NCBI RefSeq assembly: GCF_963921235.1
Contig: NC_086108.1
Coordinates: 66,404,001-66,468,000 of the forward strand
Direction: 5' to 3'
DNA length: 64,000 bases
Origin: Mobula hypostoma
Taxonomy: Eukaryota
This document shows positions 1-63,738 of the stretch, in pieces. Both the position numbers and the translations under genes were made by a program. The stretch's first letter is position 1, and every line of letters begins with the position of its first letter. Below the pieces are notes generated by a model, which did no database searches, was not told the DNA's origin, and worked only from the letters and a program-made list of their open reading frames with translations.

Positions 1-916
1 GAGATCCAAAATGATAGAAGAAGACAGGAGGGGGAGGGATGGAGCCAAGAGCTGGACAGTTGATTGGCAAAAGGGATATGAGAGGATCATGGGACAGGAG
101 GCCCAGGGAGAAGGAAAAGGGGGAGGGGGGAAAAAAACCCAGAGGATGGGCAAGGGGTATAGTCAGAGGGACAGAGGGAGAAAAAGGAGAGAGGGAGAAA
201 GAATGTGTGTATAAAAATAAATAATGGATGGGGTACGAGGGGGAGGTGGGGCATTAGCGGAAGTTAGAGAAGTCAATGTTCATGCCATCAGGTTGGAGGC
301 TACACATGTAGCCATACATGTAGCCAGTGGCCACACATTTTAATTCCACATCCCATTCCCATTCTGACATGTCTATCCACGGCCTCCTCTACTGTAAAGA
401 TGAAGCCACACTCAGGTTGGAGGAACAACACCTTATATTCCATCTGGGTAGCCTCCAAGCTGATGGCATGAATATTGACTTCTCTAACTTCCGCTAATGC
501 CCCACCTCTCCCTCGTACCCCATCCATTATTTATTTATATACACACATTCTTTCTCTCTTTCTCCCTCTGTCCCTCTGACTATACCCCTTGCACATCCTC
601 TGGGTCCCCCCCCCCCCTTTCCTTCTCCCTGGGCCTCCTGTCCCATGATCCTCTCATATCCCTTTTGCCAAACACCTGTCCAGCTCCTGGCTCCATCCTT
701 CCCCCTCCTGTCTTCTCCTATCATTTTGTATCTCCCCCTCTCCCTCCCACTTACAAATCTCTTACTAGCTCTTCCTTCCGTTAGTCCTGACGAAGGGTCT
801 CGGCCCGAAATGTCGACTGTATCTCTTCCTAGAGATGCTGCCTGGCCTGCTGCGTTCACCAGCAACTTTGATGTATGTTGCTTGAATTTCCAGCATCTGC
901 AGAATTCCTCGTGTTT
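1..916. mobile_element. Penelope-like element (PLE) remnant with fold-back structure: 1-302 is the reverse complement of ~449-735; left end runs off the window
   Basis: 324-497 (+) translates PVATHFNSTSHSHSDMSIHGLLYCKDEATLRLEEQHLIFHLGSLQADGMNIDFSNFR*, the C-terminus of a PLE GIY-YIG endonuclease. It is followed by a pyrimidine-rich 3' region and the pLTR/hammerhead module. Confidence 0.85.
783..818 (+). ncRNA. Minimal type-I hammerhead ribozyme motif in PLE terminal repeat
   Basis: AGTC-CTGACGA-A-GGG tctcgg CCC-GAAA-TGTC-GACT. Stem I is AGTC/GACT, stem II is GGG/CCC, and both core boxes are present; C>T at 811. Confidence 0.7.
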
Positions 917-1333
917 AAGTAGTTACAGTAATTAGGGGAGGGTTAATTACAAAAATAACAACTTATTTATAGATCTCTTTTTATACAAATGATGTAACTT
1001 GAAGTGTTTTACAATGGGATAAAGTGCAAACATGAAAATAAAAGACAAAACGATGCTATTTAAATACAATGCTAAATCAATTGATTTCTAGCTGGCATTT
1101 AAAAGTGTCAACTGAGTCTGCATCCTTATAATTTTAGGTATTGAGTTCCATAATTCAAAAAGGCTGCCCTGCCTGTTATCTTTTGAGGAAGATAGTTTAA
1201 ATTTTAAGAAACTGGCTGAAGAAGACCTGAAAGCTCGAGCAGGATTATAAAAAGAGAACTATTCTGTGATGTAACACACATAAAAGTTGCTGGTGAACGC
1301 AGCAGGCCAGGCAGCATCTCTAGGAAGAGGTGC

Positions 1334-1369
1334 AGTCGACGTTTCAGGCTGACACCCTTCGTCAGGACT
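1334..1369 (-). ncRNA. Minimal hammerhead ribozyme motif, core intact
   Basis: Reverse complement reads AGTC-CTGACGA-AGGG tgtcag CCT-GAAA-CGTC-GACT. Confidence 0.7.
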
Positions 1370-1702
1370 AACTGAAGGAAGAGTGAGTAAGGGATTTGAA
1401 AGTTGGAGGGGGAGGGGGAGAGTACCCCATCTGTTACTTATTTTTATACACACATTCTTTCTCTCACTCTCCTTTTTCTCCCTCTGTCCCTCTGAATATA
1501 CCCCTTGCCCATCCTCTGGGTCGCCCCCCCCCCCACTTGTCTTTCTTCCCGGACCTCCTGTCCCATGATCCTCTCGTATCCCTTTTGCCTATCACCTGTC
1601 CAGCTCTTGGCTCCATCCCTCCCCCTCCTGTCTTCTCCTATCATTTTGGATCTCCCCCTCCCCCTCCAACTTTCAAATCCCTTACTCACTCTTCCTTCAG
1701 TT

Positions 1703-1738
1703 AGTCCTGACGAAGGGTCTGTACCTGAAACGTCGACT
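1703..1738 (+). ncRNA. Minimal hammerhead ribozyme motif, core intact
   Basis: AGTC-CTGACGA-AGGG tctgta CCT-GAAA-CGTC-GACT; predicted GUC cleavage triplet at 1732-1734. Confidence 0.7.
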
Positions 1739-2299
1739 GCACCTCTTCCTATAGATGCTGCTTGGCCTGCTGCGTTCACCAGCAACTTTTATGTGTGTTG
1801 CTTGAATTTCCAGCATCTGCAGAATTCCTGTTGTTTGCTATTCTGTGATGTACCATATTTCAGTCCCAGAATAATGAGAGCTTTCAAATCAATTCTAAAA
1901 GATGCAGGAAGCCAGTGCAGAGTAGTTAGGATTGGAGTGATATGCTCCCTCATCCTGGTTTTAGATAAATGTCTAGCTACGAATTCTGAATGAGTTGAAT
2001 AGATTGTTTTGGAAAGCCAGTAAAAAGTGTATAGCAGTAATCTAATCTATTCGACATAAAGGCATGAATTAGGACTTCAGTGTCATTACCTGACAGAAAC
2101 AGATATATCTTTACAATATTTCTTAAGTGTAGAAATGGTGCTCTGGTCACTTTCATTACATGGGATTAAAAATCCAAATCTGAATCAAGGATAACAGGCA
2201 GGTTTAATTACAAGGGAATTAAGCAGAAATTTAGGAGCATAAATAGGGCTCAGATCTTCTCAGTGAAATGTACAGTGGAATTGTGTAAGGTGCATGGGT

Positions 2300-2835
2300 T
2301 TCTGTATAGGTTTGTTCCATTGAGCTGGTAAAGGGAAGGACAAGAGAGGTACAACTTCTAGGCAAGAAGAAGAAGGATGCGTTCTGAAGGTTTAGGAAGC
2401 AAAGATTAGACAGGGCTCTTGAAAGGGATAAGGTAACCAGGAAGGAGCTTAAGAAGGAGCACAGGAAGGACCAGTGAGTCTTACATCAATGGTGGGCAAA
2501 CTAATCAAGAGGATTCTTCGAGCCAGAATTTATCACCATTTGGAGAGGCATAGACTTATTATGGATAGTCAGATTTCTTTGTGAGGGGCAGACCATGCCT
2601 CATGAGCCTGATTAAGGAAGTGACAAAACAAACTTCATAAGGAAGTGACAAAACCAGCTTATGGAGGTAGAGCATTATATGTGATGTACATGCATTTTAG
2701 AAAGGCATTTGACAAGGTTCCCTATGGAAGACTCATCCAGAAAGTCATGGAGCATGGGATCCCTAGAACCTTGGAAGCATGAATTCAAAATTTGCTATCC
2801 GACAGAGGCAGAGGGTGGTAGTAGACAGAGCATAT
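2300..2835 (+). mobile_element. Degraded CR1 ORF2 fragment
   Basis: Decayed PVSLTS..GK and Y.HFRKAFDKVP motifs resembling the CR1 RT at 5243-6691. Confidence 0.7.
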
Positions 2836-3269
2836 GTCGTGAGATTAAAAATGACTGTCTCATGTATAAATACACTGATCTTGTAGGGATATGTCAAACT
2901 TTCTAAACAATTAAACGGGTGCATTTAGGCCTTTACTATTTGATTCAATCTATGAAGAAGCACACAGGTAGCAATGTCCATATGAAGGATCCTCCTCTAT
3001 GAGGAAATCATACAGCAAAAAAACAGGGAAAAGGAGAAGCAATGGGTGAAGGAGCACCAACAAATACAGCCAAGTTTTCCCTTCTCTACACATTTATACA
3101 TTGAAGATTACACTCGTAAACCTCCACAGATCCAAAGAATTCTGCCGATTATGGATAATGACATTGAGAATAAAAATACCCTCTTCTCTGAGGAATTTGC
3201 CAAAACCAATAGTGAGACATTTATGTTATGCAGATATGCCTCAGCAGCTAAGATTATTCTCTTTGGAGC

Positions 3270-4592: not shown

Positions 4593-7500
4593 TAGAAACA
4601 TAGAAAACCTACAGCACAACACAGGCTCTTCGGCCCACAAAGCTGTGCCGAACATGTCCTTACCTTAGAAATCACCTAGAGTTACCCATAGCTCTCTATT
4701 ATTCTGAGCTCCATGTACCTGTCCAGGAGTCTCTTAAAAGACCCTATCATATCCGCCTCCACCACTGTTGCCAGCAGCCCATTCCATGCATTCACCACTC
4801 TCTGCGTAAAAAAATTACCCCTACAATCTCCTCTGTACCTACTTCCAAGCACCTAAAAACTGTGCCCTCTCGTACTAACCATTTCAACCTTGGGAAGAAG
4901 ACTCTGACTACTCACATGATCAATGCCTCTCATCATCTTATACACCTCTATCAGGTCACCTCTCATCTTCCGTCGCTCCAAGGAAAAAGGTCAGAGTTCA
5001 CTCAACCTATTCTCATAAGGCATGCTCCCCAATACAGGCAACATCCTTGTAAATCTCCTCTGCACCCTTTTTGTGGTTTCCACGTCCTTCCAGTACTGAG
5101 GCGACCAGAACTCAGCACAGTACTCCAAGTGGGGTCTGAACAGGGACCTATATAGCTGCAACATTACCTTTCGGCTCTTAAACTCAATCCCACGGTTGAT
5201 AAAAGCCAATATACCGTATGCTTTCTTAACCACAGAGTCAACCTATGCAGCAGTTTTCAATGCCCTAATGACTCGGACCTCAAGATTCCTCTGATCCTTC
5301 ACACTGCCAAGAGTCTTACGATTAATACTATATTTTGTCATCATATTTAACCTACCAAGATGAACCACCTCACACTTATCTGGGTTGAACTCCATCTGCC
5401 ACTTCCCAGCCCAGTTTTGCATCGTATCATTGTCCCACTGTAACCTCTGACAGCCCTCCACACTATCCACAACACCTCCAACCTTTGTGTCATCAGCAAA
5501 TTTACTAACCCATCCCTCCACTTCCTCATCCAGGTCATTTATAAAAATCACGACGAGTAAAGGTCCCAGAACAGATCCCTGAGGCACACCACTGGTCACC
5601 GACCTCCATGCAGAATATGACCCATCTACAACCACTCTTTGCCTTCTGTGGTCAAGCCAGTTCTGGATCCACAAAACAATATCCCCTTGGATCTCATGCC
5701 TCCTTACTTTTTCAATAAGCCTTGCATGGAGTACTTTGTCAAATGCCTTGATGAAATCCATATACACTACATCTACGGCTCTTCCTTCATCAATATGTTT
5801 AGTCACATCCTCAAAAAATTCAATCAGGCTCGTAAGGCATGACCTAACTTTGACAAAGCCATGCTGACTATTCCTAATCATATTATGCTTCTCCAAATGT
5901 TCATAAATCCTGCCTCTCAGGATCTTCTCTATCAACTTAACAACCACTGAAGTAAGACTCACTGGTCTATAATTTCCTGGGCTATCTCTACTCCCTTTCT
6001 TAAATAATGGAACAACTTCTGCAACCCCCCAATCCTCCGGAACCTCTTCTGTCCCCATTGATGATGCAAAGATCATCACCAGAGGCTCAGCAATCTCCTC
6101 CCTTGCTTCCCACAGTAGACTGGGGTACATCTTGTCTGGTCCCGGTGACTTATCCAACTTGATGCTTTTCAAAAGCTCCAGCACATCCTCTTTCTTAATA
6201 TCTACATGCTCAAGCTTTTCAGTCCGCTGTAAGTTATCCCTACAATCGTCAAGATTCTTTTCCGTAGTGAATACTGAAGAAAAATACTCATTAACTACCT
6301 CTGTTATCTCCGCCAGTTCCATACACACTTCTCCACTGTCACAATTGATTGGTCCTATTCTCTCATATCTTATCCTCCTGCTCTTCACATATTTGTAGAA
6401 TGCATTGGAGTTTTCCTCAATCCTGTCCACCAAGGCCTTCTCATGGCCCCTTCTGGCTCTCCTAATTTCATTGTTAAGCTCCTTCCTGCTAGCCTTATAA
6501 CCTTCTAGCTCGCTATCATTACCTAGTTGTTTGAACCTTTCATAAGCTCTTCTTTCCTTCTTGACTAGATTTACAACAGCCTTTGTACACCATGGTTCCT
6601 GCACCCTACCATCCTTTCCCTGTTTCATTGGAATGTACCTCTGCAGATCTCCACGCAAACATCCCCTGAAGATTTGTCGCATTTCTTCCATTCATTTCTC
6701 TGAGAACATCTTGTCTTAATTTATGCTTCCAAGTTCTTGCCTGCTAGCCTCATATTTCCTCTTACTCCAGTTAAACGCTTTCCTAACTTGTCTGTTCCAA
6801 TCCCTCTCCAATGCTATGGTAAAGGAGACAGAATTATGATCACTATCTCCAAAATGCTCTCCCACTGAGAGATCTGATACCTGACCAGGTTCATTTCCCA
6901 ATACCAGATCAAGCAAGTACCTCTCCTCTTGTAGGCTTATCTACATATTGTGTCAAGAAACCTCTTGAACACACCTAACAAACTCCACCCCATCTAAACC
7001 CCTCACTCTAGGGACATGCCAATCAATATTTGGGAAATTAAAATCTCCCACCTCAACAACCCTGTTATTATTACACCTTTCCAGAATCTGTCTCCCTACC
7101 TGTTCCTCAATGTCCCTGTTACTACTGAGTGGTCAATAAAAAACACCCAGTAGAATTACTGACACCTTCCTGTTCCTAACTTCCACCCACAGAGACTCCG
7201 TAGACAATCCCTCCATGTCTTCCTCCTTTTCTGCAGATGTGACACTATCTCTAATCTACAGTGCCACGCCCCCACCTCTTTTGCCTCCCTCCCTGTCCTT
7301 TCTGAAACACCTAAAGCCTGGCACTCAAAGTAACCATTCTTGACCCTGAACCATCCAGGTCTCTGTAATGGCCACAACATCATAGCTCCAAGTACTGATT
7401 CAGACTCTAAGCTCATCTGCTTTGTTCATGACACTCCTTGCATTAAAATAGACACATCTCAAATCATCGGTCTGAATGCATCCCTTCTCTATCACCTGCC

Positions 7501-11352: not shown

Positions 11353-13266
11353 CAATACTTTGTCAAGGTATTCAGCTCCCACAACTATTTTCACATTTTA
11401 CTGAGTCACTTTCTAAATTTAAAATATATTGAAGTTAGATTTTTTGAGCTAATCTCCAAAATATTGTGCATTATGTCAAGAAAAGAAAAGTTCCCAAACC
11501 TGTCAACAATTTACTAAAAATTAAAAACCAAAATTGTGAGGCTGAGAAGTATTCATCCCCTTTTATAATTACTATGCTAACTTTCCTCAGGTGCAAAACT
11601 GTATATAACCTTACCAACTCACCCCATTTGTTGATGTAGAAAATAGGAAGATCACCTGTTTTCATAGAATTCATAAGAATAAATACCCTCTCTCTCTGTA
11701 AGGTCCATTAGTATGCCAGACTTCCAACAGACCAAAATAAAGACAAAAGAGAATTCAAGACATCAGGGAAATAACAATAGAGAACCACACATCTAGGGAA
11801 GGGTACAAGACCATCTCAAAGGCAAGGAACTCAATGCAGTCCATTGTGAAGAAGTGGAAAAATATGAAACCACAGCCACACTTCCCAGGTCAGGCTGCCC
11901 CTCTAAACTTAGTTGCCCAGAGGAGAATCTCGCTGTGAAAGAGACCATTTGCTGTGAACAGTCACTCTGAGTGCGCTGCAGAAATCAGTGGCTGTAACTG
12001 GAGATGAATTTTATGGCTCCACAAACTCTAAGGTCTTGCACAAAAGGGGTATTTGTGGAAGAATGACAAGAAAGAAGCCCTGGCCAAAAGAAAAGCATAT
12101 CCTTTGCAAAGGATCGCTTAGAAGTTACTGTAAAGATGTACAAAAAAGTCTTCTGTCAGATGAGACTAAAGTGGAACTTTTTGGTCTCAACACTAAGCAG
12201 TACATGTGGTGTGAATCTAATGCTGCACATCAGCTAGGTAACACCATCCCTACTGTAAAGTATGGTGGAGGTAGCATTATGCTGTGGGGATGCATTTCAG
12301 CAGAAGGGATTGGAAGTCTGGTCAGGACTGACGGACAGATGAATGCTTCACAACCATCCATGAAAACGGAGGAGTGCCCCAAAGAATGAATTTTAAATGT
12401 TAGAACCCCAAAGTCCCCCTCAGCTTCCCTCCCTGCTGTGCATAAGTGACAGCAAGCAACAATCCCCTCTCCCCCCATCGGCAAAAAAAAAGCATTGGCA
12501 CCCACTACCGAGCACTCAAGCATGAGCAAAACAACAGCAAAGACACAGACTTGCAGTTACCCCAAAGACTTCGCGTTTCACCCAGTATTCGACATACCAA
12601 AGGCTCTCTCTCTCCCTAATAAGGGAGAAATGGTTGATTCCATTTTCACAGCGAGCCAGGAGACGTAACAAACAACTCGCTGATTTACAATGTTAAAAGT
12701 CCATTATGTTGCTTTTTTTGAATTCTGTGCCCAAAGATCTGGGCACACAGCCGTAGATGTTCTGACTCCCCCGATGACACAGGGGTCTCCTGCCGCAACA
12801 CTGACCTTCCATCCACCCGTCTCCAGAGCCCCGAGATCCCAAGCCTCCAAAGCCAAGCCAGACTCTTAGGCCGAGCCCTTGGCATGCTGAAAAACGGCCA
12901 GTTATGAAACCCCGAGACCGGGTCCTATTCCTGCAAAGAACCGCAGTCAGCGTGTGCCTCCAGGTCAGGGTCTTCAAAAGAACCCTGAAAGGGAAAAATA
13001 AAGATATTAAAGATGGAAATAGAGCTGTTTTCAAAAATGCAAGCAAAGGCATTGCTGCTGAGCGCCATCATCACTCAGCTCCGCCTCCAGAAGTTTTTCA
13101 TGCTTTACAATTTTCCCCGTCTTTTTAGGGGGCTCGACTGCGAAAAAAGAAGCATGTGGTTCACAAATAAAAATTTTGAGCTAATTTGATCAAAATTCCT
13201 AGGTAATACTCATTTCTGTGAACCAAGGGTTGGGGGAGGGGTGCTGAATACTTTTACAAGGCACTG
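11353..13266 (+). mobile_element. Tc1-family DNA transposon (IR/DR type), internally deleted and interrupted
   Basis: TA at 11351-52 and 13267-68. TIRs caatactttgtcaaggtattcagctccc and the reverse complement of cagtgccttgtaaaagtattcagcaccc; inner DR aagtattcatcccc at ~11547. Transposase motifs EGYKTISK, SDETKVELFG, PTVKYGGGSIMLWGC. Confidence 0.9.
12346..13090 (-). mobile_element. Unclassified GC-richer non-coding insertion inside the Tc1 element
   Basis: Transposase homology stops abruptly after ..DGQMNA. The minus-strand 5' end ggaggcggagctgagtgatgatggcg resembles the start of 15090-15737. Confidence 0.5.
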
Positions 13267-14349
13267 TATGTGTATAACCTGACATAAATTAATTTTTTTT
13301 GGTCAAAATGAGTTCATAAATAAACAATTATGTGACAGTGAAGGCCAGCTGCAGACTCATATTTTCACATAGTTTATGACTTTATATTCAGACATATCCT
13401 TCTTTCATTATGCATAAACCAGAGGATCAGCCCTAATTGAGTGAGTAGTGCAGAAGAAAATCCCAAGAAGTGTATAAAACGAACCTGAAGAGAGGTACCA
13501 TCCTCCTGAAGCTCCAACACTAAGCTATATCTAAGGAAGTAGCTGTAATAGACTGAACAAAGCAGCTTCACAACAAACAGATGTGATCAAACATTTGCAG
13601 TCCTACCACATCCTGTCAAGAAAGGTGAGCAGTGAAAGAGCACACAGAGGAGAAGACTGAATATGCACCTTCATTATGAGTGACACTGAGCCTAACATAT
13701 GAATGCAAGCTGTTTGCAATCATCTTCCACCAGCGTGTCAAGTGAATTACGTATCTCAGCCGTCTCCAGAAGTTTCTGTAAGTTCCGGATCTAGTCTTCA
13801 GCCGATGCCATGTAACAATTGAACTCAGCAAATCAGCAAAGTCTTTGGATCCAGCCAGCATCTCAGCTGTAATGCAAGTGCATTTTAAGTGTCTCATATG
13901 CATCTGTAAAAGACGTCAGCAAAAGTGGGCAAATTTCAATTCTTGACATGCCACTTCTGGCCTGGAATTCTTTTCTTTAAATTTCTTTAGACAGTGTTCT
14001 TACTCCGTTTTGTTAAATTAGTTTTGGAGAATCTGGATTGCAGCATGGAGATACTGAAGTTACTTTGAGGCCTGTTTGCTATTTGAATTTTTGACATCTA
14101 GAGCTTTCCAGATCTCATCTTCTCATCCAGAATCACTTCATGAACTAATCATTTCTAAACACTAAGAGTACATCATTTATTGATGATATAAACAAATCCT
14201 CAGGATTAAACTAACTCTGAATATGATCTTTTTCTTTATGTGGTCAAAAGGTGGCTCTAGTGTGTGTTTATGCAGCTAATATAGATAGTCCTGAATTTTT
14301 TAAGGAAGTATTTTCTGTGCTGCCAAATTTAAATGAACACAAGTTGATT

Positions 14350-15908: not shown

Positions 15909-16129
15909 GTTGTCGGACCACACACCTATGATTTCCTGATAACATTTTAAAATCTTCTCACTGGAGATTTAATACTCATTATTACAGGACTTAGCTTTTG
16001 TAAGTTTTACTAAAGAACAAATTTCTTTATTTTTTGAATTAAATACAACTGAGGGAATGTCAAATTTGGTTATTTGGGATACGATGAAATCTTTTCTCTG
16101 AGGACAGATAATTTCACGTTCAGTAGGTT

Positions 16130-20104: not shown

Positions 20105-20690
20105 ATATAGCAACTCAATGCATAAAAGCATGCAGACATAGTCAAGGGTGTTAGTTGTTGTTCAGACAAAACAACAGATGGAGAAGAAATGTGCTTTATG
20201 TGACTTCAGTTGTAAGATGATTGTTCATGCCAGACGGGTTAGTTTGAGTATCTAAGGAACTGGTGATATCTTGTGGTTTTCATGCACAACAGTCTCTCGA
20301 GCTGACAGAGAATGGTGTAAAAAACAAGAAACATCCAAATGGCATCTTCTTATTTTTTCTCCAGTCCTGCTGAAGGGTCTCGGCCTGAAATATCAACTGT
20401 ACTTTTGCCATTCATGCCGCTGGCCTGCTGAGTTCCTCCAGCATTTTATGTGTGCCAATTGACAGTAGTTCTGTGGGCGAAAATGTATTGTTAATGAGGG
20501 ACGTCAGAGGACAATGGCTAGACTGGTTCAAGTTGATAGGAAGGTGACAGTTACACAAATAACAGCAGTGGTGTGGAGAAGAGCATCTCTGCATGCACAA
20601 CACATTAAACATTGAAGTGGAAGCGCTGCAGAGGCAGACCACAAACATACACTCAGTGGCTACTTTGTTAAGTACAAGAGGTGCTAAGTC
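20105..20690 (+). mobile_element. Non-autonomous Tc1-like element interrupted by a PLE/hammerhead fragment (~20345-20455)
   Basis: FSCTTVSR..EWCKKQETS HTH-like remnant and TIR-like cactcagtggctacttt; inverted copy of 62378-62910. Confidence 0.75.
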
Positions 20691-25456: not shown

Positions 25457-25879
25457 ATAGACCTTTTCTTCAGTGCTACCTTCCTGCACCACTCCTGTGT
25501 TCTTGGATTCCTTTAACATGTTAAAAAGCAATCAATCCCTGACTTGATTTCATGAATATATTCAGTGATTGGAATGTTACCTTCCCAGTGGAACTTGCTG
25601 CTTGTAAAAGGTGCTTCAAAAGGAACTTGGATAGGCTGTAGGAGAAAAATAAATGGAATAAAACCAATTGGATTGTTCTGCAAGGAATAGGTGAAGATTT
25701 GATGGAGCAAAGCCTTCTTCCTGTGTATAATTAATAATCTGAGTCCTCCTATTTTGATACTACATTTAGTGACCTCAACTAGCATTCCCACATTTTATTT
25801 CCAACTAGTAGCCAGAACAACTAGTGTCACTCAGCCTGGAACTAAATCAGGAATCAGACAGCCTTACATACCTGAATCA

Positions 25880-28229: not shown

Positions 28230-28856
28230 CATAAGAAAGCTTATGGGGTGTTAGCTTTCATAAATCGAGGGATAGAGTTTAAGAGTCACGATGTAATGAT
28301 GCAGCTCTATAAAACCCTGGTTAGGCTACACTTGGAGTACTGTGTCCAGTTCTGGTCACCTCACTATGGGAGGATGTGGAAGCATTGGAAAGGGTACAGA
28401 GGAGATTTACCAGGATGGTGCCTGGTTTAGAGAGTATGCATTATGATCAGAGATTAAGGGAGCTAGGGCTTTACTCTTTGGGGAGAAGGAGGATGAGAGG
28501 AGACATGATAGAGGTATACAAGATATTAAGAGGAATTGATACAGTGGATAGCCAGCGCCTCTTCCCCAGGGCACCACTGCTGAATACAAGAGGACATGGC
28601 TTTAAGGTAAGGGGTGGGAAGTTCAAGGGGGATATTAGAGGAAGGGTTTTTACTCAGGGAGTGGTTGGTGCGTGGAATGTACTGCCTGAGTCAGTGGTGG
28701 AGGCAGATACACTAGTGAAGTTTAAGAGACTACTAGACAGGTATATGGAGGAATCTAAGGTGGGGGCTTATATGGGAGGCAGGGTTTGAGGGTCGGCACA
28801 ACATTGTGGGCCGAAGGGCCAGTACTGTGCTGTACTATTCTATGTTCTATGTTCTA
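28230..28856 (+). mobile_element. CR1 3' end inserted into a PLE terminal module
   Basis: LAFINRGIEFKS..LEYCVQFWSPHY..WNVLPE; (ttctatg)n tail. It splits ctggaggaac|tcagcagg. Confidence 0.92.
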
Positions 28857-29105
28857 ACTCAGCAGGAAAGGCAGCATCCATTGAGGGAAGTGAACAATTG
28901 ACATTTTGTGCTGGGACCCTTCATCAGGACTGGAAATAAGAAGGGCAAAAACCTGAATAAAAGGAAGAACATGAGCTGGCAGGTGAATCCAGGTGAGGGA
29001 GCAGTTTAGGAAGGTGGGGAGGGTGGAGAGAGGGATGATGTAAGAAGCTAGTGGGGAATAGGTGGAAGATGTAAAGGGTTGAAGAAAAAGAGATCTATAC
29101 GAGAA
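28857..29105 (-). mobile_element. PLE terminal fragment with degenerate hammerhead
   Basis: tcagcagg..gcagcatc..gacattttgtgctgggacccttcatcaggactgg followed by the purine-rich tract. Confidence 0.75.
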
Positions 29106-30740: not shown

Positions 30741-30774
30741 ACTAAATCTGCTCTTATGGTGTTATAGATAATGT

Positions 30775-31030
30775 GATAAAGGAAAAGGAGGCAGGGAACA
30801 AGAGTGAGGGAGGTGTAGGCGACGGACAAATTGTGAGAACACGGGAGGAGAAAGAGAAGAGATAAAAGGGCCAAAAGGATAAGGGAAACAGAGGGGAATG
30901 ATTACCAGAAGCAAGAGAAATAAACGCTGATACTATTAGGTTGGAGACGACCATGACAGAATATGAGATGTTGCTCCTCCAGTCTGTATCTGATCTCAAC
31001 ATTGGCAAATCCACTTTCCATTTCCACACA
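30775..31030 (-). mobile_element. Degraded PLE fragment
   Basis: Purine tract and atatgagatgttgctcctcca match the reverse of the GIY-YIG end at 415-497. Confidence 0.55.
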
Positions 31031-37084: not shown

Positions 37085-37355
37085 AAATGCAAGAGATCCT
37101 GCAGATTCTTGAAATCCAGCGCAAAACATACAAAATGCTGGAGGAACTCAGCAAGTCAGGCAGCAGCTCTGAAAATGAGTAAACAATTGACATTTCGGGC
37201 TGAGACCCTTCCACGGGACTGGAAAGGAAGGGGGAAGATGCTACAATAAAAAGGTGCGGGAGGAGTAGAAGGACCAGCTAGGAGGTGATAGGTGAAGCTT
37301 GGTGGGTTGGAAAGATAAAGTGCTGGACAAAAAGGAATCAGATAGGAGAGAATAG
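37085..37355 (-). mobile_element. PLE terminal fragment with degenerate hammerhead
   Basis: tgctggaggaactcagca..gacatttcgggctgagacccttc..ggactgg. Confidence 0.8.
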
Positions 37356-37396: not shown

Positions 37397-38105
37397 AGAC
37401 CATTAGACCATAAGGCATAGAAGCAGAATTCAGCCATTCAACCCATCGATTCTGCTCTGCCATTTCATCATAGCTGATCAAGTTCCCTCTCTGCCTGATT
37501 CTCCTGCCTACTCCCCATAACCTTTCATGCCCTGGCTAATTAACAATCGATCAACCTCATCCTTAAATGCACCAGATGACCTGGCCTCCAGAGCCACCTG
37601 TGGCAACGAATTCCACAGATTCACCACCATCTGGCTGCTCATCTCTGTTCTAAATGGATATCCCTCTATTCTGAGTCTGTTCCCTCTGGTCCTACACCAG
37701 ATCATCTCTTCTTTCAGTTAGTGCTGACAAAGGGTCTCGGCCCAAAACGTCGATTGTACCTCTTCCTACAGATGCTGCCTGGCCTGCTGCGTTCCACCAG
37801 TATTTTGTGTGTGTTGCTTGAATTTCCAGCATCTGCAGATTTTCTCATGCTTGCGTCCTCTCTCATGCCTCTGTAATTCCCTTTACTCCACTGTAATACT
37901 GATATGTTTGACTTTAGCTTCTCCCTCTCAAATTGCAGGGTGAATTCTAGCACAGTATGATCACTGCTTCCTCAGGGTTCCTGTAATTTAAACTCCTGAA
38001 TCAAATCCGGTTCAATACACAACACCAAATCCAGAATAGCTAATCCCTTAGTAGTCTCAACCACAAATTGCTCTAAAAAGCCATCCTGTAGGACTTCTCC
38101 AAATT
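37397..38105 (-). mobile_element. CR1 fragments (3' end and APE part) with a + strand PLE/hammerhead fragment at ~37705-37852
   Basis: VVNLWNSLPQ..; EFTLQFEREK; ttagtgctgacaaagggtctcggcccaaaacgtcgattg. Confidence 0.8.
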
Positions 38106-43049: not shown

Positions 43050-43450
43050 AAAAGTGATGAGAGTTAGCAGATTTAGGCCATTCAGCCCATTGAGACAACT
43101 CCACAATTCAATCACAGTTGATTTATTATCTAACTGAAACCCATTCTCATGACTTCTCCCCACAACCTTTGACATCCTTACAAACCAAAAACCTATTAAC
43201 CTCTGCTTTAAATATAATCAATATGACTTGGCCTCCACAGTCATCTGTGCAATGAATTCCATAGATTCACCAACCTCTGGCTAAAGAAATTCCCCCTTAT
43301 CTCTGTGTTAAAGGGCTGTCCTTCTATTGGAAACATCTTCTCCAAGTCCACTCTATCTAGGCCTTTCAATATTGAATATGTTTCAATGAGTTCCCCCCTC
43401 ATTCTTCTAAACTCCAGTGAGTACAGGCCCAGAGCCTTCAAGCACTCCTC
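43050..43450 (-). mobile_element. CR1 3' end followed by a degenerate PLE module (~43450-43525)
   Basis: LGLYSLEFRRMRGELIETY..LWNSL. Confidence 0.85.
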
Positions 43451-44144
43451 AGATGAAGAATCTCGACCCAAATATTAACTCCCCTTTTCACGCCACAGAA
43501 GCTGCTTGACCTGCCGAATTCCTCAATGATCAAATTGTGCATTTTGTTCTCTCATTTTTAAACTGTGATTATATCCATAATGAGCAAATGTCGAAATTTG
43601 TTTGCCATAGTTGAATTTCTAAACTGTTGTATTTCTTACCTGCTTGAAAAATCTTTTAAACATCTTTGGCTCAAAAGGATTTGATAGATACAATTAATCA
43701 GACCCTATCTAAATTGAGAAATGAATGTCAAGAAATTATGGCTAAGCTGTGGACAAATCAGTCAGAACAGCAGGAAAGTAATAATGTTTTAATTGTGGCA
43801 ATTTGCACAAGTCATGTACACATTTTTTATTTCAGAAGAGAGAACAGATTACGTAAACATTTTACTGCTTTCTCAGAACAATTTAACCATGCCATAAAAT
43901 TTGGACTGTGGAGTGTTTTAAATGACTAAATATAATATGGATATCATCTGCACTGTAGCTCCTGGAGCATGATTGGTTTGGTCTGCAGAATCTTCTGTAA
44001 AAACAGGTGAGTGTGGTGTCTAGGTTTGGATGAGTGGACAGGGTGGTCTAGGAGTGGCTGAGAGGGAAGTCCTAGAGACCAGGAACATTGCTGGTCGTAG
44101 GATCCCTCTCAATGATGTCAGGCCCTGTTTGCTGAACCATTGAT

Positions 44145-44272
44145 ATCAGGTTTGACAAACAATCTGCTGGAGGGACTCAGTGAGCCCAGGCGTTGTCAGC
44201 ATTTCAGGTTGAAACCCAAATGCATTAGATTATTTGCTGCTCCAGATTCCAGCATCTGCAGTCTCTTGTGCC
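44145..44272. mobile_element. Short degenerate PLE terminal remnant
   Basis: tgctggagggactcag..catttcaggttgaaaccc..ccagcatctgcag. Confidence 0.55.
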
Positions 44273-44299
44273 TCCACTGATATCCAGTTAGCATTTTTT

Positions 44300-47244: not shown

Positions 47245-48262
47245 TATATTTTTATAATGTATGTCAATGATTTGGACTACGGGATTAATGGATTTGTGGC
47301 TAGATATGCTGATGATGCAAAGACAGGTGGAGGAGTGGGTAGTGTTGAGGAAACAGAGAGCCTGCAGAGAGATTTAGATGGTTTAGGGGAATGGGCAAAG
47401 AAGTGGCAAGTGAAATACAATGTTGAAAAGTGTATGGTCATGCACTTTGGTGGAATAAATAAACGGGCAGACTATTACTTAGATGGGGAGAGAATTCAAA
47501 GTGCAGAGGTGCAAAGGGACTCGGCAGTCCTTGTGCAAGATACCCTAAAGGTTAACCTCCAGGATGAATCGGTGATGAAGAAGGTGAATGCAATGTTTGG
47601 CATTCATTTCTAGAGGCATAGAATATAAGAGCAGGGATGTGATGTTGAGGCTCTATAAGGCACACGTGAGACCACACTTGGAGTATTGTGTGCAGTTTGG
47701 GGCTCTTTATATTAGAAAGGATATACTGACATTGGAGAGGGTTCGGAAAAGATTCATGAGAATGATACCAGGAATGAAAGGGTTACCATATGAGAAACGT
47801 CTGGCAGCTCTTAGGCTGTATTCCCTGGAGTTCAGGAGAGGGAGGAGGGATTTCATAGAAACATTCTGAATATTAAAATCCCTGAACAGATTAGATATGG
47901 CAAAGTTATTTCCCATGGTAGAGGAGTCTAGGACAAGAGGGCACTACTTCAGGATTGAAGGATGTCGATTTAGAACAGAGATGCATTCACCAGCAACTTT
48001 GATGTGTGTTGCAGAGAAATTACTTTAGTCAGAGGGTGGTAAATTTGTGCAATTTGTTGCCATGAGCAGCTGTGGCCAAGTCATTGGGTGCATTTAAGGC
48101 AGGGATAGATAGGTTCGTGATTAGCCAGAGCATCAAAGGGTATGGGATGAAAGCAAGAGAGAGGGGATGAATAGAAGAATTGTATCAGCCCATGATACTA
48201 TGGTGGAGCAGTCTCAATGGGCCAAATGGCCTACTTCTGCTCCTATATCTTATGGTTTTATA
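47245..48262 (+). mobile_element. CR1 ORF2 3' half
   Basis: YVNDLD..YADDAK..LAFISRGIEYKS..RPHLEYCVQF, then a CR1 tail. Confidence 0.9.
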
Positions 48263-53323: not shown

Positions 53324-53325
53324 GA

Positions 53326-53715: not shown

Positions 53716-53812
53716 TTCATATAGAGTTATCCTATTGATAGCTGAATTTGTATTTCCCATGGGTGCAATAAAGAGCAACTCCAGGGTTTCCAGTGATGAA
53801 GTACATCCAATA

Positions 53813-53934
53813 AACAACACACATCAAAGTTGCTGGTGAACGCAGCAGGCCAAGCAGCATCTATAGGAAGAGGCGCAGTCGATGTTTCAGGCCGAGACCC
53901 TTCGTCAGGACTAACCCTTCGTCAGTACTAAAAA
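53813..53934 (-). mobile_element. 122-bp PLE/hammerhead mini-insertion with 14-bp TSD
   Basis: TSD aagtacatccaata at 53799-53812 and 53935-53948; hammerhead motif at 53877-53912. Confidence 0.88.
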
Positions 53935-55224
53935 AAGTACATCCAATATCCTTCTCAGCAACTTGTCTAGGAGGACTACAAAGCTGTAAAATTGAGCAGA
54001 CTGAGCAAAGTGCATTGGTAACTTGCCTTAAATTGAAAAGTGTATGGAGCAAATGAGCTAATCTGGCAAAAGTACCTTGTATTCCCGTGAGCTTGTCAAA
54101 GTTGACAGTTGTGGGTGTTTTCTCTCATATTTTCAGGGCTATTTGCACTTTGCTATGCCCTGAGGTTATGGAAATATCAATAGAATTGTAAGTCTTTCTG
54201 TCATTCTTTTGGAGCTCCGTCAATGGCTGTCTTTCAGTGATGAAGCTTTGAAGGTTCTTTGTTGCTGCAGCTAGAACTGCAGCTGAACTCCAGGGGAAAG
54301 TCATAGAAATTGTGCCATGTCTACACATCTTGGTAGATAGATTTTGCTGGGCTGCTCTAACTTTCCTCTGGTGTTGCCCTTGGAACTGTCTACCACTGTA
54401 GCATATAAATCTAGTGAAGCAGGTCCAGACCCTTAATTGCTGCCCGTATGATAACCCTTACACTCCCAAGATCATTTTCATGAACCTCCTCTGAACCCTC
54501 TCCAATGACATCCTTTCTTAAATAAGAGGCGCAAAACTGTTCACAATATTCCAAGTGAGGACTCTTATAAAGCCTCAGCATTACATCCTTGCTTTTAAAT
54601 TCTAGTCCTCTTAAAATGAATGCTAACATTGCATTCGCCTTCCTCACCATCGATTCAACCTGCAAACTAAACTTTAGGGAATCCTGCACAAGGACTCACA
54701 AATCCCTTTGCACCTTGGATTTTTGAATTCTCCCTGTTTAGAAAACAGTCTTTGCTTTTATTTCTTCTACCAAAGTACATTCCCAACACGGTATTCCATT
54801 TGCCACTTCTTTACCCATTCTCCTAATTTGTCCAAGTCCTTCTGCAGCCTCCTAGCTTCCTCAACACTACCCTCCCCTCCATCTATCTTTGTATCACCTG
54901 TAAACTTGGCCACGAAGCCATCAATTTCATCATCCACATCACTGACATGCAATGCAAAAAGAAGCAGTCTCAACGCAGATCTGTGTGGAAAACCATTAGT
55001 AGCCAGCAGCCAATCTGAAAATTATCCCTTTATTCCCACTCTTTGCCTTCTGCTAGTCAGCCAAGGCTCTATCCATGCTAATATATTTTCCTGTAAACAG
55101 CATCCTGTGTGGCACCTTGTCAAAGGACTTCTGAAGATCCAAGAACACAACATCTACCAATTTTCTTTTGTCTATCCTGCTTGTTATCTCTTCAAAGAAT
55201 TCCAACAGATTTGTCAGGCATGAA

Positions 55225-56298
55225 CTAAAGAAAATCTGCAGATGCTGGAAGTCCGAGCAACACACACGAAATGCTGGTGGAACTGAGCAGGCCAAGCAGC
55301 ATTTAGGAAAAGAACACAGTCAACATTTCGGGCTGAAACCCTTCAGCAGGACTGGAGAAAAAATTGAGGAGTGGATTTAAAAGGTGGCGGGAGGGGAGAG
55401 AGAAACAGCAGGTGGTAGGTGAAACCTGAAAGGGGAGGGATGAAGGAACGAGCTGGGAAGTTGATTGGTGAAAGAGACAGAAGGCCATGTAAGAAAGAAA
55501 AGGGGGAGGAGCAACAGAGGGAGGTGACAGGCGGGGAAGGAAATAAAGTGAGAGAGGGGAAAGGGGATGGGAAATGGTGAAGAATGGGGGTAAGGGGCAT
55601 TACTGGAAGTTTGAGAAAGCAGTGTTCACACCATCAGATTGGAGGCTACCCAATTGAAATATAAGGTGTTGTTCCTCCAACCTAAGTGTGGCCTAATCAC
55701 GACAGTGGAGAGACAATATTGAAATGGGAATGGGAAGTGGAATTAAAATGGGTAGCCACCGGGAGATCCTGCTCTTTCTGATGGACCATAGGTGCTCAGT
55801 GAAGCGGTCTCCCAACCTATGTCAGGTCTCACTGATGCAAAGGAGGCCACACTGGGAGCACCAAACACGGTATATAACCCCAACAGACTCACAAGTGAAG
55901 TGTTTCCTCACCTGGAAGGGCTGTTTAGGGCCCTGAATGGTAATGAGGGAGGAGGTGTAGGGGCAGGTGTAATACTTGTTCAGTTTGCAAGGAAGGATAA
56001 GTGCCAGGAGGGAGATCAATGGGACAAGGGAGTCACATAGGGAGAGATCACTGCGGAAAGCAGAAAGAGAAGGGAGGAGGGAAGGTGTGCTTGGGGGTGG
56101 GATCCCATTGGAGTGGTGGAAGTTTCGGAGAATTATGTGCTGGACACGGAGGCTGGACATCCTTCCCCCTGCAGGTTGCACCTATCACCTTGTGCTTCTC
56201 TCTCCCCTCACCCCCACCTTTTAAATCTACTCCTCAGCTTATTTCTCTAGTCCTGCCGAAGGGCTTTGGCCCAAAACATCAACTGTACTTTTTTCCTG
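55225..56298 (-). mobile_element. PLE 3' portion with GIY-YIG remnant and inverted segment (~56160-56298)
   Basis: IQGPKQPFQVRKHFTCESVGVIYRVWCSQCGLLCISET, a decayed GIY-YIG; degenerate hammerheads at ~55317-55353 (-) and ~56249-56285 (+). Confidence 0.88.
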
Positions 56299-56596
56299 CA
56301 TTTGTCTGCAAGAGTTTCCCTTAACAAAACCATGCTGACTTTGGCCTATTTTATCATGTGCCTCAAAGTATCCCAAAGCCACATCCTTAACAATTGATTC
56401 CAACATCTTCCCAACTACTGAATTTGGGCTAACTGGCCTATAATTTCCTTTCCTCTGATTCCCTGTCTTCTTGAAGTGTGGAGTTACATTTGCAATTTTC
56501 CAGTCCCCTGAAATCCCTGAAACCATGCCAGAACCTAGTGACTCTTCAAAGATTATTACTAATGCCTCCACAATCTATTCAGCCACCTCTTTCAGA

Positions 56597-61478: not shown

Positions 61479-62377
61479 GATGATTCAAAACTAAGTATAA
61501 TTAATAAGCTGCAATAAGCATTAGAATAGACAAAAAGATAGTGGCTTCAAGGCAAACATTCCTGCATTGGAAATATTTCAAAAAAATTAATTAGATTTCT
61601 AAAGGTATGGCAGATGATGGTCCAAAGTTTCTGCAAAGTTCCAAGCTACTCACTAATCACTCACCTGCTGATCATGAGTAGACCTCTTAACATGAACTTC
61701 GGCAAAGAGGCCAGCTCTGACCTGAGCAGCACATAGTCTTGTGATCGTATATACCATCAACCTACTTCAGCAGTCGGTCATCTCATACCCCTGGGATGAA
61801 ACTGCTATTGAACCAGCCAAAGACGTCAATGTATGTAAATCTACAAATAGGTAAAACTATTGCAGAACTGTTTAATACACAGTTTTAAAATATACAATTA
61901 TTTAAAACACAGCATTTCAAATACTTAAAATTAATTATTGTTAACATCACACAATGAAGTATAAAAATACCAACTGGTGAAGCTCAGTTTTCTCCCTTGA
62001 AGTTGAAACAGTTTATTAGTGTTGTTTATTGTTGCTATGTCTGTCAGAACACAGGTTGCATGGTACATTCTTCATGGAAAATACTGAGAAATTTGGGTAA
62101 AGCATTCTCCACCAGAGCTCAGTGTTGCAGTATAGTTGAGATGTTTGTCACTTGAGCTTATACATACTGGCACTGAAATCCTGAGCTTAAATATAGTTAA
62201 GAACTTTAACATCTGAATGTTCTGAACAAATCTGCCAGTTATTTACTGGAGATTACAGGTTATAAGGAAATAGTATATTTGTACATTTTATTATTTCAAA
62301 ACAAACAAGGTGTTCATCCTTTATTCTTGAGATCAGGACCAATATAAAGTTTGCTTATAAGCTGCACTATATATTGT

Positions 62378-62910
62378 ACACTAAGTGGACACTTTATTAG
62401 CTAAGTCCTGTACATAATAAAGTAGCCACTTAGTGTATGTTCATGATCTTTTGCTGCTGTAGCCCATCTTTCTTCAATATTCGATGTGTTTTCAGAGATG
62501 CTTTTCTGCACACCACTGTTGTAACATGTGGTTATTTGAGTTACTGTTGCCTTCCTGTGAGCTTGCATCAATCTGGTCATTCTCCTCTGACTTCTCTCAT
62601 TAACAAGGTGTTTTTGCCCACAGAACTGCCACTCATTAGATGTTTTCTGTTCCTCGCACCATACTCTGTAAACTCTGGAGACTGTTTTATGTGAAATTTC
62701 CAGGAGATCATCAGATTTAAAGATATTTAAACAATCTTGCACCAACAACCAGTCCAGGGTCAAAGTCACTTAGGTCACATTTCTTCCCCATTCTAATGTT
62801 TGATCTGAACAACTGTTATGCATTGAGTTGCTGCCACATGATTGGCAGATTTGATGCTTGCATTAATGAGCAAGTATAAAGGTGCACCTAATAAAGTAGC
62901 CTCTGGGTCT
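62378..62910 (-). mobile_element. Non-autonomous Tc1-like element
   Basis: TIR-like cactaagtggacactttattag / ctaataaagtagcc and HTH remnant ISHKTVSRVYRVWC..RKATVTQITT. Confidence 0.82.
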
Positions 62911-63186
62911 AAGTTGCACAGTACAGAAGTGAAATGCAGCAAGAAATGACAAATTCAGGAACTTGGAAATAAAAACAAACAATGAAGAAATTACTTTGCA
63001 GGTTAGGTGACGATTTTGGAGAAAGAGGAAGGTTAACATGTAAAGATAAAGACCTTTCATTAGAAGTAGGAAAACTTGTAAGTTGTGAGGAAATTGGTGA
63101 GAACAAAGGGAATGCCTGTCATAATGTAGAGTACAGGACTGACTGACAAAGGTGAATTTAGTGCCTGCTTTGGGAGGGTGTGTAAT

Positions 63187-63334
63187 ACTCACAACACGCT
63201 GGAGGAACTCAGCAGGTTTCGGGCCAAAACGTTGACTGTTCGTTTCCACGGATGCTGCCCAACCTGCTGGGTTCCTCCAGCGTGTTGTGAGTGTTGCTTT
63301 GACCCCAGCATCTGCAGAATATTTTGTGTTGAAT
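63187..63334. mobile_element. Fold-back PLE mini-insertion with 9-bp TSD
   Basis: 32-bp arms 63187-63218 and 63261-63292 (one mismatch); TSD gtgtgtaat at 63178-63186 and 63335-63343. Confidence 0.85.
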
Positions 63335-63526
63335 GTGTGTAATTACATCTGATCTATCTGGAAGTGTAGAAAGATAGGAAGATGACTGTGAATAGAGAAG
63401 AAAGAAGGTTAAAAGACAGTAATGTTGGAATTATGAGAAAAGGAGCACACCAGTTGCTAGAAATCTGAAGCAAATAAGAACGTGGAAATACCCATAAGAG
63501 TCACAAATATAGAGGACAATCAATGT

Positions 63527-63738
63527 AACACACAAAAAAATGCTGGAGGAACTCAGCAGGCCAGGCAGCGTCTATGAAAAAAAAGTGCAGTCGATGTTTT
63601 GGGCTGAAATGCTTCAGCAGGACTGGAGAAAAAAAGCTGAGGAGTAGAATTAAAATGTGGGGGAAGGGGTGAGAGAAACACCAGATGATAGGAAACCTGG
63701 AGGGGGAGGAATGAAGTAAAGAGCTGGGATGGTGATCA
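63527..63738 (-). mobile_element. PLE terminal fragment with degenerate hammerhead
   Basis: tgctggaggaactcagcaggccaggcagc..cagtcgatgttttgggctgaaatgcttcagcaggactgg. Confidence 0.8.

Follow-up and report, generated by a model that had tools for sequence, protein, structure and literature searches.

Hammerhead-bearing PLE ends in a 64-kb window of the ray Mobula hypostoma are very probably 5'-truncated insertions

Copies and motifs in the window

The analysed stretch of Mobula hypostoma NC_086108.1 (64 kb in total, hereafter the window) contains a minimal type-I hammerhead motif in 12 whole and 2 half copies, every one of which is present where a preliminary description of the sequence had listed it. 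These 14 motif copies go back to 12 insertion events, since two pairs, 1334/1703 and 55317/56249, each represent one inverted insertion. PLE material as a whole amounts to 14 events and 4258 bp (6.7% of the window), in agreement with the earlier claim of dense PLE termini mostly lacking an ORF.

The window begins with the inverted, 5'-truncated arm A' (1..306, minus strand; assigned by tblastn to P0002), which comprises the last ORF codons and 3' UTR and shares 90% identity with 445-734 of the opposite strand; its 3' end, here assumed, and its ribozyme fall outside the window. Copy A (324..916, plus strand; tblastn 89% to P0002), a 3' end of the young subfamily, holds the final 57 GIY-YIG ORF codons (324-494), the 3' UTR, a hammerhead at 783-818 (C3 at 787, intact core, stem III AUGU) and the long tail end. 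The following B/C insertion lies between target-site duplications of 15 nt (1259..1273 and, as an exact match, 1838..1852). It consists of the short inverted arm B (1273..1421, minus strand; hammerhead 1334-1369 with C3 at 1365, intact core and ACGU; short 3' end) and of arm C (1422..1837, plus strand; 3' UTR, hammerhead 1703-1738 with C3 at 1707, intact core and ACGU; long 3' end), for which a cut after 1734 is predicted straight from the sequence.

Copy D (20345..20454, plus strand) is of the A6C type and has the short 3' end; a decayed duplication (8/10 nt, 20335-20344 vs 20455-20464) was spotted by eye. Copy E (28856..29090, minus strand) is older, carries G12A, has an uncertain 5' end and is cut off at its 3' end by another repeat, and an old PLE piece at 30770..30997 (minus strand; tblastn E 3e-5 to P0004) comprises the end of the ORF and some of the UTR without a ribozyme. 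Copy F (37085..37345, minus strand) is likewise older, with a damaged first box and the long 3' end, and copy G (37706..37856, plus strand) is of the young type with G8A, G12A and the long 3' end. The most decayed copy is H (43446..43522, plus strand), with about 57% identity to young copies. An inverted pair at 44137..44284 lies within a 10/11-nt duplication, its left arm (minus) starting in stem II and its right arm (plus) consisting of tail only; a further tail-only insert of about 25-30 nt, without ribozyme, is situated within another repeat at 47982..48012 (plus strand; blastn 93.5%, E 3e-8).

Copy I (53799..53948, minus strand) is an insertion of 120 nt bounded by exact duplications of 14 nt (53799-53812 and 53935-53948), with intact core boxes, an AUC triplet and a 17-nt duplication of its 5' box. 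The longest copy, arm J (55221..56157, minus strand), contains a broken ORF end (56157-55603, with linker Cys motif and GIY-YIG), the 3' UTR, an A6C hammerhead at 55318-55353 and the long 3' end; its inverted partner, arm K (56158..56299, plus strand), has an A6C hammerhead at 56249-56284 and an unusually short 3' end, and the J/K duplication matches at 8/9 nt (55209-55217 vs 56300-56308). Inverted pair L (63178..63343) lies within an exact 9-nt duplication, with a left arm (minus) lacking the ribozyme and a right arm (plus) starting in stem II. Copy M (63526..63742, minus strand) is of the A6C type with UTR, a hammerhead at 63589-63624 and the short 3' end.

With 770-920 of copy A as blastn query, 12 further matches were found in the window at E <= 5e-5, and a profile of 12 copies also recovers two stretches outside its seed, 43452-43547 (E 1.4e-7) and 44217-44145 (E 0.018). 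The two core boxes alone give a weak signal (14 matches vs 7.7 expected, a number reached by 3 of 100 shuffles). A descriptor including stems I and II has 4 matches, with C3 at 787+, 1365-, 1707+ and 53908-, and none in 200 Markov controls; 4 of the 12 whole copies thus fit the full descriptor. Rfam yielded no matching hammerhead model and 0 matches at gathering, and its 14 weak matches at E <= 10 on 700-1900 include no hammerhead.

Four complete motifs per 64 kb may be a high density for a vertebrate. In the axolotl, up to 120,000 retrozyme copies are reported; given this number, and since three of the four complete motifs fall within the first 1.8 kb of the window, density alone is unsurprising.

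Coding sequence and identity of the element

Copies A and J pass from the ORF end into the UTR and then into the ribozyme. The segment 324-596 is 89% identical to ray protein P0002, which has RT and GIY-YIG motifs, and 56157-55777 is 62% identical to it. P0002 matches Pfam GIY-YIG with E 4.6e-4, below the curated cutoff; the ORF fragment of the window alone matches no Pfam family. Upstream of the part matching the window, the homologues P0002 and P0003 show PF26215 along with a YIDD motif. As the 64-kb window contains neither a full-length element nor a PLE RT domain, the source element is deduced from these ray proteins. The linker motif CX2-5CxxC, which PMC8557442 describes as common to Neptune and Nematis, is intact in P0002-P0004, and copy J retains two of the three cysteines at the aligned place.

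Judged by these similarities, the copies are identified as 3' ends of Neptune-type PLEs, the Cys motif fitting Nematis as well. The predicted GIY-YIG endonuclease at the ORF's C-terminus adjoins the terminal repeat, by which EN+ PLEs are recognized, and insertion features of EN+ PLEs are present: 5' truncation, an inverted truncated partner and two classes of 3' ends (14 of 17).

Inverted pairs and ends of the copies

Five loci are inverted head-to-head pairs, four of them enclosed in one target-site duplication, and three of the four complete pairs combine one short-end with one long-end arm. Arms B and C are 96% complementary over 149 nt. By script, target-site duplications of 9-15 nt were found at 5 of the 12 insertions searched; none was found at copies E, F, G, H and M.

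With C3 as reference, the 5' ends (n=18) are scattered between -808 and +87. The arms are 26 to 936 nt long, consistent with an exponential model of truncation (KS p 0.71); 13 of the 18 arms start upstream of the core, none starts at the cleavage site, and three are without ribozyme. End positions were set by hand and are uncertain for E (between -17 and -194) and F (between -96 and -138). Diverged UTRs in old copies make 5' ends seem shorter than they truly are. Concerning the 3' ends, 7 of 17 lie at +87..+95 and 7 of 17 at +120..+133, i.e., at two sites about 37 nt apart, and that of arm K (+45) lies outside both classes. In contigs of two DNA runs, loose ends pile up behind 916/917 (725+424 and 609+339) and are also numerous before 783 (715 and 570), where they give a consensus similar to the UTR in copies E and F. 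At genome scale, the contigs extend over the end of the ORF and not just over the ribozyme, which likewise speaks against a free-standing module.

Ribozyme core, stems and predicted folding

The motif has a stem I of 4-5 bp, one extra base after A9, a stem II of 3-4 bp and a palindromic 15.2-16.2. Boxes, stems I and II and the NUH site characteristic of hammerheads occur together in 4 of the 12 copies. As first described, both boxes together with GUC are retained only at 783, 1334 and 1703; the motif at 53908 has both boxes, but an AUC triplet and a broken palindrome. The core is damaged by one or two changes in each of 8 of the 12 whole copies. The proposed consensus CTGA(C/T)GA holds for most copies, whereas four of the 12 read CTGC(C/T)GA, and the proposed AC-GT palindrome of stem III is found at 1334 and 1703, but reads AUGU at 783. 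Altogether, ACGU occurs in three of the 12 copies, and the remaining nine show CpG-type changes. In both DNA runs, most of the summed depth at position 811 (71% and 68%) shows C, the letter needed for ACGU.

In 11 of the 12 copies (H excluded), 91.8% of 98 stem cells pair, compared with 15-46% for slid stems. Covariation was not found, with 0 of 9 pairs altered on both sides and a score no better than that of shuffles in a sample of few, closely related and decaying copies; stem changes are mostly one-sided and represent CpG-type decay. The preferential conservation of CTGANGA/GAAA that had been anticipated is apparent as a modest excess over the flanks (p 0.01-0.07), which does not exceed that of a downstream 17-nt block. 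The young copies A, B and C are predicted to form a stable rod (stems I and II with probability 0.94-1.0), whereas most folding z-scores are unremarkable (-0.07 to -0.92, and -2.25 in one of 6 stretches). In the predicted monomer fold, GACG of the first box pairs with CGUC of the cut site, an inactive shape, and the ACGU duplex is predicted to contribute only -3.1 kcal/mol.

Origin of the copies

The copies are very probably dead-on-arrival, 5'-truncated insertions of autonomous ray PLEs of the Neptune type, derived from at least two and probably three source subfamilies. The source elements would comprise an ORF (RT, Cys linker, GIY-YIG endonuclease), a 3' UTR of about 290 nt, the minimal type-I hammerhead and a further 65-102 nt. 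The PLE endonuclease would nick the target, and reverse transcription would begin downstream of the ribozyme at either of two sites, pass back through the ribozyme and halt at random; since it sits near these start points, nearly all short copies would carry it, hence its density. Priming on both target strands would result in two arms joined head to head within one duplication. Because no 5' end lies at the cut and 13 of the 18 arms start upstream of the core, we infer that the copied RNA was uncut at this ribozyme, or re-ligated. In intact tandem source elements, slow cleavage of dimers via the ACGU palindrome is probable by analogy with the literature, whereas inserted copies would decay and be mostly inactive.

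A possible, though rather unlikely, addition to these plain truncations, and compatible with them, is a soft hot spot of 5' ends caused by RT stalling at the folded ribozyme or by an internal pLTR start site. Between -22 and +9 lie six of the 18 5' ends (fixed window, p 0.006), and the predicted rod would offer an obstacle of this kind; however, the cluster is not significant once the window may move (p 0.145), apparent 5' ends are shortened by the diverged UTRs of old copies, and the z-scores are for the most part those of ordinary sequence.

The same cluster could reflect a short element, non-autonomous and about 110-150 nt long, that starts just upstream of stem I, has its own transcript and uses the PLE protein in trans. 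Such derivatives of PLEs exist in vertebrates, according to the portion of bioRxiv 10.64898/2026.07.22.740005 available, and both the peak of summed contig depth over 772-899 and the frequent loose ends before 783 would fit. This origin is nevertheless improbable: the six 5' ends (-22, -18, -7, -4, +8 and +9) all differ and stem from differing subfamilies, short copies match ORF-linked ones (I is 90-93% like A, B and C), the loose-end consensus looks like the UTR of another subfamily, and the 10 tandem rows include no array of the module.

The preliminary description had favoured a discrete, retrozyme-like version of such a module. This is not supported, as the boundaries are scattered in the manner of simple 5' truncations, the very pattern it had named as speaking against the module; lengths follow exponential truncation, two copies extend into the ORF, and three of the 18 arms are without ribozyme. 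Retrozymes were rejected as candidates since a head-to-tail array is lacking among the 10 tandem rows (one row is the 17-nt duplication of copy I), and also on unit length, the arms having no fixed boundaries and the pairs being inverted.

Least probable are working ribozymes retained by the host to cut or circularise its transcripts, e.g., the 920-nt stretch between the same-strand, intact-core motifs at 787 and 1707, whose stem III strands AUGU and ACGU could pair; two ray gene models (P0005 and P0006) take the module as an exon, but the core damage, the one-sided stem decay and the inactive monomer fold argue against it, and a 787-1707 transcript holds arm B in antisense to C, which should thus trap the second ribozyme.

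Comparison with known systems and implications

The features of these truncated PLE insertions are those of already published PLE anatomy. Minimal hammerheads are known from the pLTRs of fish Neptune, Xena and Poseidon elements (Cervera and De la Pena 2014, PMC4209133), and, as in the motifs described there, the ray motif is of type I with a short stem I, an extra base between A9 and 10.1, a G10.1-C11.1 pair, a palindromic 15.2-16.2 and no loop 3. In the sections of that paper available, the motifs are mostly single copies, "probably related to truncated PLEs", opposite-strand pairs lie 100-700 bp apart, and the highest genome counts are about 4,000 and 9,000, to be set beside four descriptor-complete motifs in the 64-kb ray window. 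Differences concern stem II (3-4 bp in the ray, 7-8 bp in schistosome motifs), the core variant (C6 in the ray, U3-A8 in PMC4209133) and the hosts, rays not being among those named in these sections.

The ray copies resemble Neptune-clade EN+ PLEs, as far as described in the accessible text of Craig et al. (2021, PMC8557442), in the C-terminal GIY-YIG preceded by a Cys linker motif, in the heavy 5' truncation and in the inverted 5'-truncated partner; the two 3' end sites about 37 nt apart match the optional tail of 30-40 bp, often at one end only, reported there. Unlike those PLEs, the ray window contains neither a partial tandem nor a full ORF, and the insertions show clear duplications of 9-15 nt and no microsatellite targeting.

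For the Anolis Poseidon PLE in vitro, the available parts of Frangieh et al. (2024, PMC11167929) report two RT start sites downstream of the ribozyme, extension of both target strands, uncut RNA as main template and insertion by ribozyme mutants; the two-site 3' ends and inverted pairs of the ray match the first two of these findings, and the uncut template proposed for the ray would agree with the third. The Anolis element belongs to another PLE clade, with an ORF beginning within the ribozyme; that of the ray family begins outside the window.

Non-LTR retrozymes (Cervera and De la Pena 2020; Li et al. 2026), which occur in one of the cartilaginous fish sampled, share with the ray copies the type-I hammerhead, the derivation from PLE pLTRs and the prevalence of copies without ORF, as far as the consulted portions of PMC7229834 and bioRxiv 10.64898/2026.07.22.740005 go; they are, however, head-to-tail tandem units of defined length, whereas the ray copies are head to head and of no fixed length.

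Rays thus join the animals in which numerous PLE ends with minimal hammerheads are dispersed through the genome, and the ray insertions are the genomic counterpart of the insertion from two start sites and on both strands that was observed in vitro. The only unexpected detail seems to be a subfamily that apparently spread with a changed catalytic letter. The A6C change is common to four of the 12 copies (D, J, K and M), i.e., three insertions; these copies are 77-81% alike and have UTR bases in common, and the same transversion occurs in three independent insertions. A single ray PLE subfamily may conceivably have multiplied from a source with a weakened A6C hammerhead, although this is doubtful from the sequences at hand: a tree with the A6C column masked shows no A6C clade, with support of 45 for J, K and M and with D apart, and the count is tiny and covers this 64-kb window alone. 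Hammerhead variants of this kind have been surveyed by Lunse et al., whose survey may already include this one.

The same CUGC-N-GA core change is found in the hammerhead of phage Bcep176, and the parts of PMC3088659 and PMC7151607 consulted describe that ribozyme as slow in Mg2+ and active in Mn2+ in vitro. In other hammerheads, cleavage with A6C is nearly lost at low Mg2+ and spared in Mn2+. Bcep176 is a bacterial virus, whereas the ray motif is a predicted ribozyme of the minimal dimer type. The role of PLE hammerheads is called unclear in the relevant passage of PMC8557442. If the A6C subfamily were real, ray genomes would constitute a natural experiment, in which sister lineages with intact and with weakened ribozymes are both widespread; if it were large, the role of the hammerhead could be tested by counting the spread of intact-core and C6 lineages. 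PLE retrotransposition in vivo would then require self-cleavage only weakly or not at all or, alternatively, an animal ribozyme would have switched its metal or helper dependence.

Motif copies and hammerhead structure

The twelve whole and two half copies of the hammerhead motif that the preliminary description had located are real, being recovered by blastn and a profile search of the window: with the copy at 770-920 as query, blastn matched 12 further places at E <= 5e-5, and a profile of 12 copies added 43452-43547 (E 1.4e-7) and 44217-44145 (E 0.018), both absent from its seed. A weak profile match at 13725-13774 (E 0.36) was left out of the copy count. The core boxes by themselves occur at a frequency too close to chance (14 matches vs 7.7 expected) and were dropped as evidence; a descriptor requiring stem I, stem II and an NUH site finds four places in the window and none in 200 controls. 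Concerning Rfam, no hammerhead model matched, the 14 weak matches representing unrelated families and lying far below their cutoffs. By alignment of the 12 copies, both boxes are intact in four, three of which possess GUC, and the other eight bear one or two core changes; as the preliminary description stated, both boxes and the GUC triplet are preserved only at 783, 1334 and 1703. The original observation is confirmed, and its interpretation is in part supported.

The ribozyme is of type I: stem I (4-5 bp) is followed by CUGANGA, a single additional A, stem II (3-4 bp), GAAA and CGU-C, loop 3 being absent. The same minimal hammerhead is described by Cervera and De la Pena in repeats of Penelope-like elements (PLEs), including Neptune elements of fish, with no cleavage of the monomer and low cleavage of the dimer (PMC4209133); a review covering later work agrees on both points (PMC6765202). 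In 11 of the 12 copies (copy H, 43446-43522(+), left out), 91.8% of 98 stem cells are paired vs 15-46% with slid stems, and no stem pair has changed on both sides. The question of core against flank conservation, raised in the preliminary description, receives a divided answer: across all 12 copies, constancy is somewhat higher in the core columns than elsewhere (0.90; permutation p 0.02; p = 0.067 when each event is represented by a single copy; 0.011 and 0.034 after exclusion of CpG columns), but a downstream block is equally constant (0.87-0.91). In the predicted monomer fold of the young copies, the first box would pair with the cut site, giving an inactive rod. The 'gatgctg...cagcatct' module was rejected as a special structure, as it folds no better than shuffles in five of six stretches. 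At position 811, the letter completing ACGU is the majority among contigs of two public DNA runs (71% and 68% of summed depth), and this palindrome is therefore taken as the usual state of the family; its losses look like CpG decay.

Element identity and abundance

The copies are termini of PLEs, as had been proposed, given the continuity of two of them into an ORF related to a ray protein: upstream of the ribozyme, copy A (324-916(+)) contains around 290 nt of UTR and then the last 57 ORF codons, and copy J (55221-56157(-)) reaches around 185 broken codons. The element fragments are closest to proteins of two rays, Mobula hypostoma and Hypanus sabinus, one protein being 89-92% identical to window pieces, and the host would accordingly be a myliobatiform ray. 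The J fragment (with one stop read as X) shares 62% identity with a ray protein in which a YIDD motif and a CX4CxxC linker are present, along with a weak GIY-YIG match. Such a linker is a marker of Neptune and Nematis elements (PMC8557442), and the element is putatively a Neptune-type PLE. An old PLE piece at 30770-30997(-) consists of ORF end and UTR and is broken off by another repeat before it reaches the ribozyme.

On the region 324-1258, 185,439 and 151,264 contig pieces were found in the two DNA runs. Summed depth, which is not a copy number, amounts to millions over the ORF end and over the ribozyme and to around 600 to 99,000 over the flank; it is taken only to show a very large and diverse family in which the ORF end is abundant too. 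For comparison, around 4,000 minimal motifs per genome are reported for the coelacanth and around 9,000 for Xenopus (PMC4209133), and as many as 120,000 retrozyme copies for the axolotl (PMC7229834).

Other repeats are abundant in the remainder of the window, and all four long frames searched (5243-6691(-), 16127-18913(+), 24666-25460(+) and 11958-12389(+)) matched mobile elements: three contain RVT_1 and one a Tc3 transposase domain. The frame at 16127-18913(+) is a frameshifted run of around 2.8 kb. In two Mobula gene models (P0005 and P0006), one of them a STARD3 N-terminal-like isoform, the ribozyme module is translated within an exon, which may reflect exonisation or annotation noise. No description of PLE hammerheads in rays was found in a literature search to which Repbase, Dfam and most subscription papers were external, and supplements may list the family; the word Penelope is absent from a 2026 preprint on manta and devil ray genomes.

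Inverted pairs and target-site duplications

Five loci consist of two arms arranged head to head. Four of them lie inside a single target-site duplication, namely B/C (1273-1421(-) and 1422-1837(+); 15 nt, exact), L (63178-63343; 9 nt, exact), the pair at 44137-44284 (10/11 nt) and J/K (K at 56158-56299(+); 8/9 nt), whereas the fifth, A'/A (A' at 1-306(-)), runs out of the window. Together with copy I (53799-53948(-); 14 nt, exact), these are the five of 12 insertions searched at which the script found duplications; by eye, one of 8/10 nt was recognized at copy D (20345-20454(+)) and one of 4 nt at an insert at 47982. None was found at E (28856-29090(-)), F (37085-37345(-)), G (37706-37856(+)), H and M (63526-63742(-)). 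F and G were rejected as an inverted pair: they belong to different subfamilies (71% alike), another repeat lies between them, and a shared duplication was not found. B meets C and J meets K without added bases; at the A'/A junction (307-323) there is a 17-nt filler of short local repeats.

Three of the four complete pairs combine a short-end and a long-end arm, as described for PLEs (PMC8557442). Since pairs share single insertions, the 14 motif copies represent 12 events; with two ribozyme-free inserts added, there are 14 PLE events, which together occupy 6.7% of the window. Because paired ribozymes lie on opposite strands, a same-strand dimer is impossible within a pair. Between 787 and 1734, two same-strand motifs with intact cores are situated 920 nt apart, and the intervening antisense arm should pair with the second.

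Copy boundaries

Ends were measured by alignment relative to core base C3 and then entered by hand; those of E and F are uncertain, and for A' an assumed 3' end beyond the window was used. The 18 5' ends spread from -808 to +87, none of them falling at the cut site (+28), and arm lengths between 26 and 936 nt fit an exponential distribution (KS p 0.71). Three arms are devoid of the ribozyme, and two start within stem II. At the start of copy I (53914-53934), the 5' stem and the first box are directly duplicated over 17 nt, probably through template slippage where the copy was truncated.

The 3' ends, on the other hand, are discrete: seven of 17 lie at +87..+95, seven at +120..+133, and three fall outside these ranges: K ends at +45, E is truncated by another repeat, and H has decayed. 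Loose contig ends pile up behind 916/917 in both DNA runs. The two classes, around 37 nt apart, correspond to the optional tail of 30-40 bp that PLEs bear (PMC8557442); in an Anolis element, such a tail matches two reverse-transcription start sites (PMC11167929). Arm K ends only around 18 nt past the cut site, outside both classes, yet adjoins a duplication.

A substitution at core position 6

Four of the 12 copies possess C instead of A at core position 6, in the first catalytic box: D (20367(+)), J (55349(-)), K (56253(+)) and M (63620(-)). As J and K are one insertion, this A6C change is present in three events. D, J and M are 77-81% alike over the module, and the C6 copies have UTR bases in common. 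That one and the same transversion arose three times independently would be unlikely, and the change is likely inherited from one source lineage. In a tree with the A6C column masked, the young copies (A, B, C, G and I) are split off as a group with a support of 98, whereas the C6 copies do not come out as a clade (J, K and M together with a support of 45, D apart).

The change has been described in a phage hammerhead whose rate is below 0.1 per minute (PMC3088659). Introduced into another hammerhead, it gave 3.6e-6 vs 0.30 per minute at 0.3 mM Mg2+ and 0.067 at 1 mM Mg2+, activity being kept in Mn2+ (PMC7151607). A degenerate motif scan of metagenome and viral contigs gave no matches. Sampling of read-through peptides for A6 vs C6 yielded only P0005 and P0006, both of A6 type; P0007 and P0008, unrelated repetitive proteins, were dropped. 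No paper joining A6C to PLEs was found, though Repbase, Dfam, most subscription papers and some supplements, situated outside the search, may hold one. That D, J, K and M form a ray PLE subfamily multiplied from a source with an A6C hammerhead is a tentative and rather doubtful reading.

Mode of dispersal

The 3' ends that the copies have in common, the random placement of their 5' ends, the target-site duplications, the head-to-head pairs and the ORF continuity were observed directly; the following course is inferred from them. The protein of the element itself would start target-primed reverse transcription 65 or around 102 nt 3' of the cut site; copying would pass through the ribozyme and then abort, and priming from both target strands would result in head-to-head pairs. 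The behaviour of the Anolis PLE protein fits such a mechanism: it extends both strands, uses uncut RNA, and is no less able to insert when the ribozyme is dead (PMC11167929).

In addition, there may be a soft hot spot of 5' ends or a minor short element, since six of the 18 5' ends are found in the interval -22..+9 (p 0.006 with the interval fixed there) and loose contig ends occur before 783 (715 and 570 in the two DNA runs); however, p rises to 0.145 for any 32-nt window, and in consensus these loose ends are similar to the E and F UTRs. A discrete, retrozyme-like module, as the preliminary description had suggested, is contradicted by the scattered 5' ends, the exponential arm lengths and the absence of any tandem array of the module in the window. 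Abortive copying from the 3' end agrees with a retrozyme preprint according to which PLE insertions are mostly truncated at the 5' side and have a single terminal repeat, and in which retrozymes are defined by tandem units (bioRxiv 10.64898/2026.07.22.740005). The ribozyme would accordingly be common in this part of the ray genome because it adjoins the start of copying, and not because a ribozyme module spreads alone.
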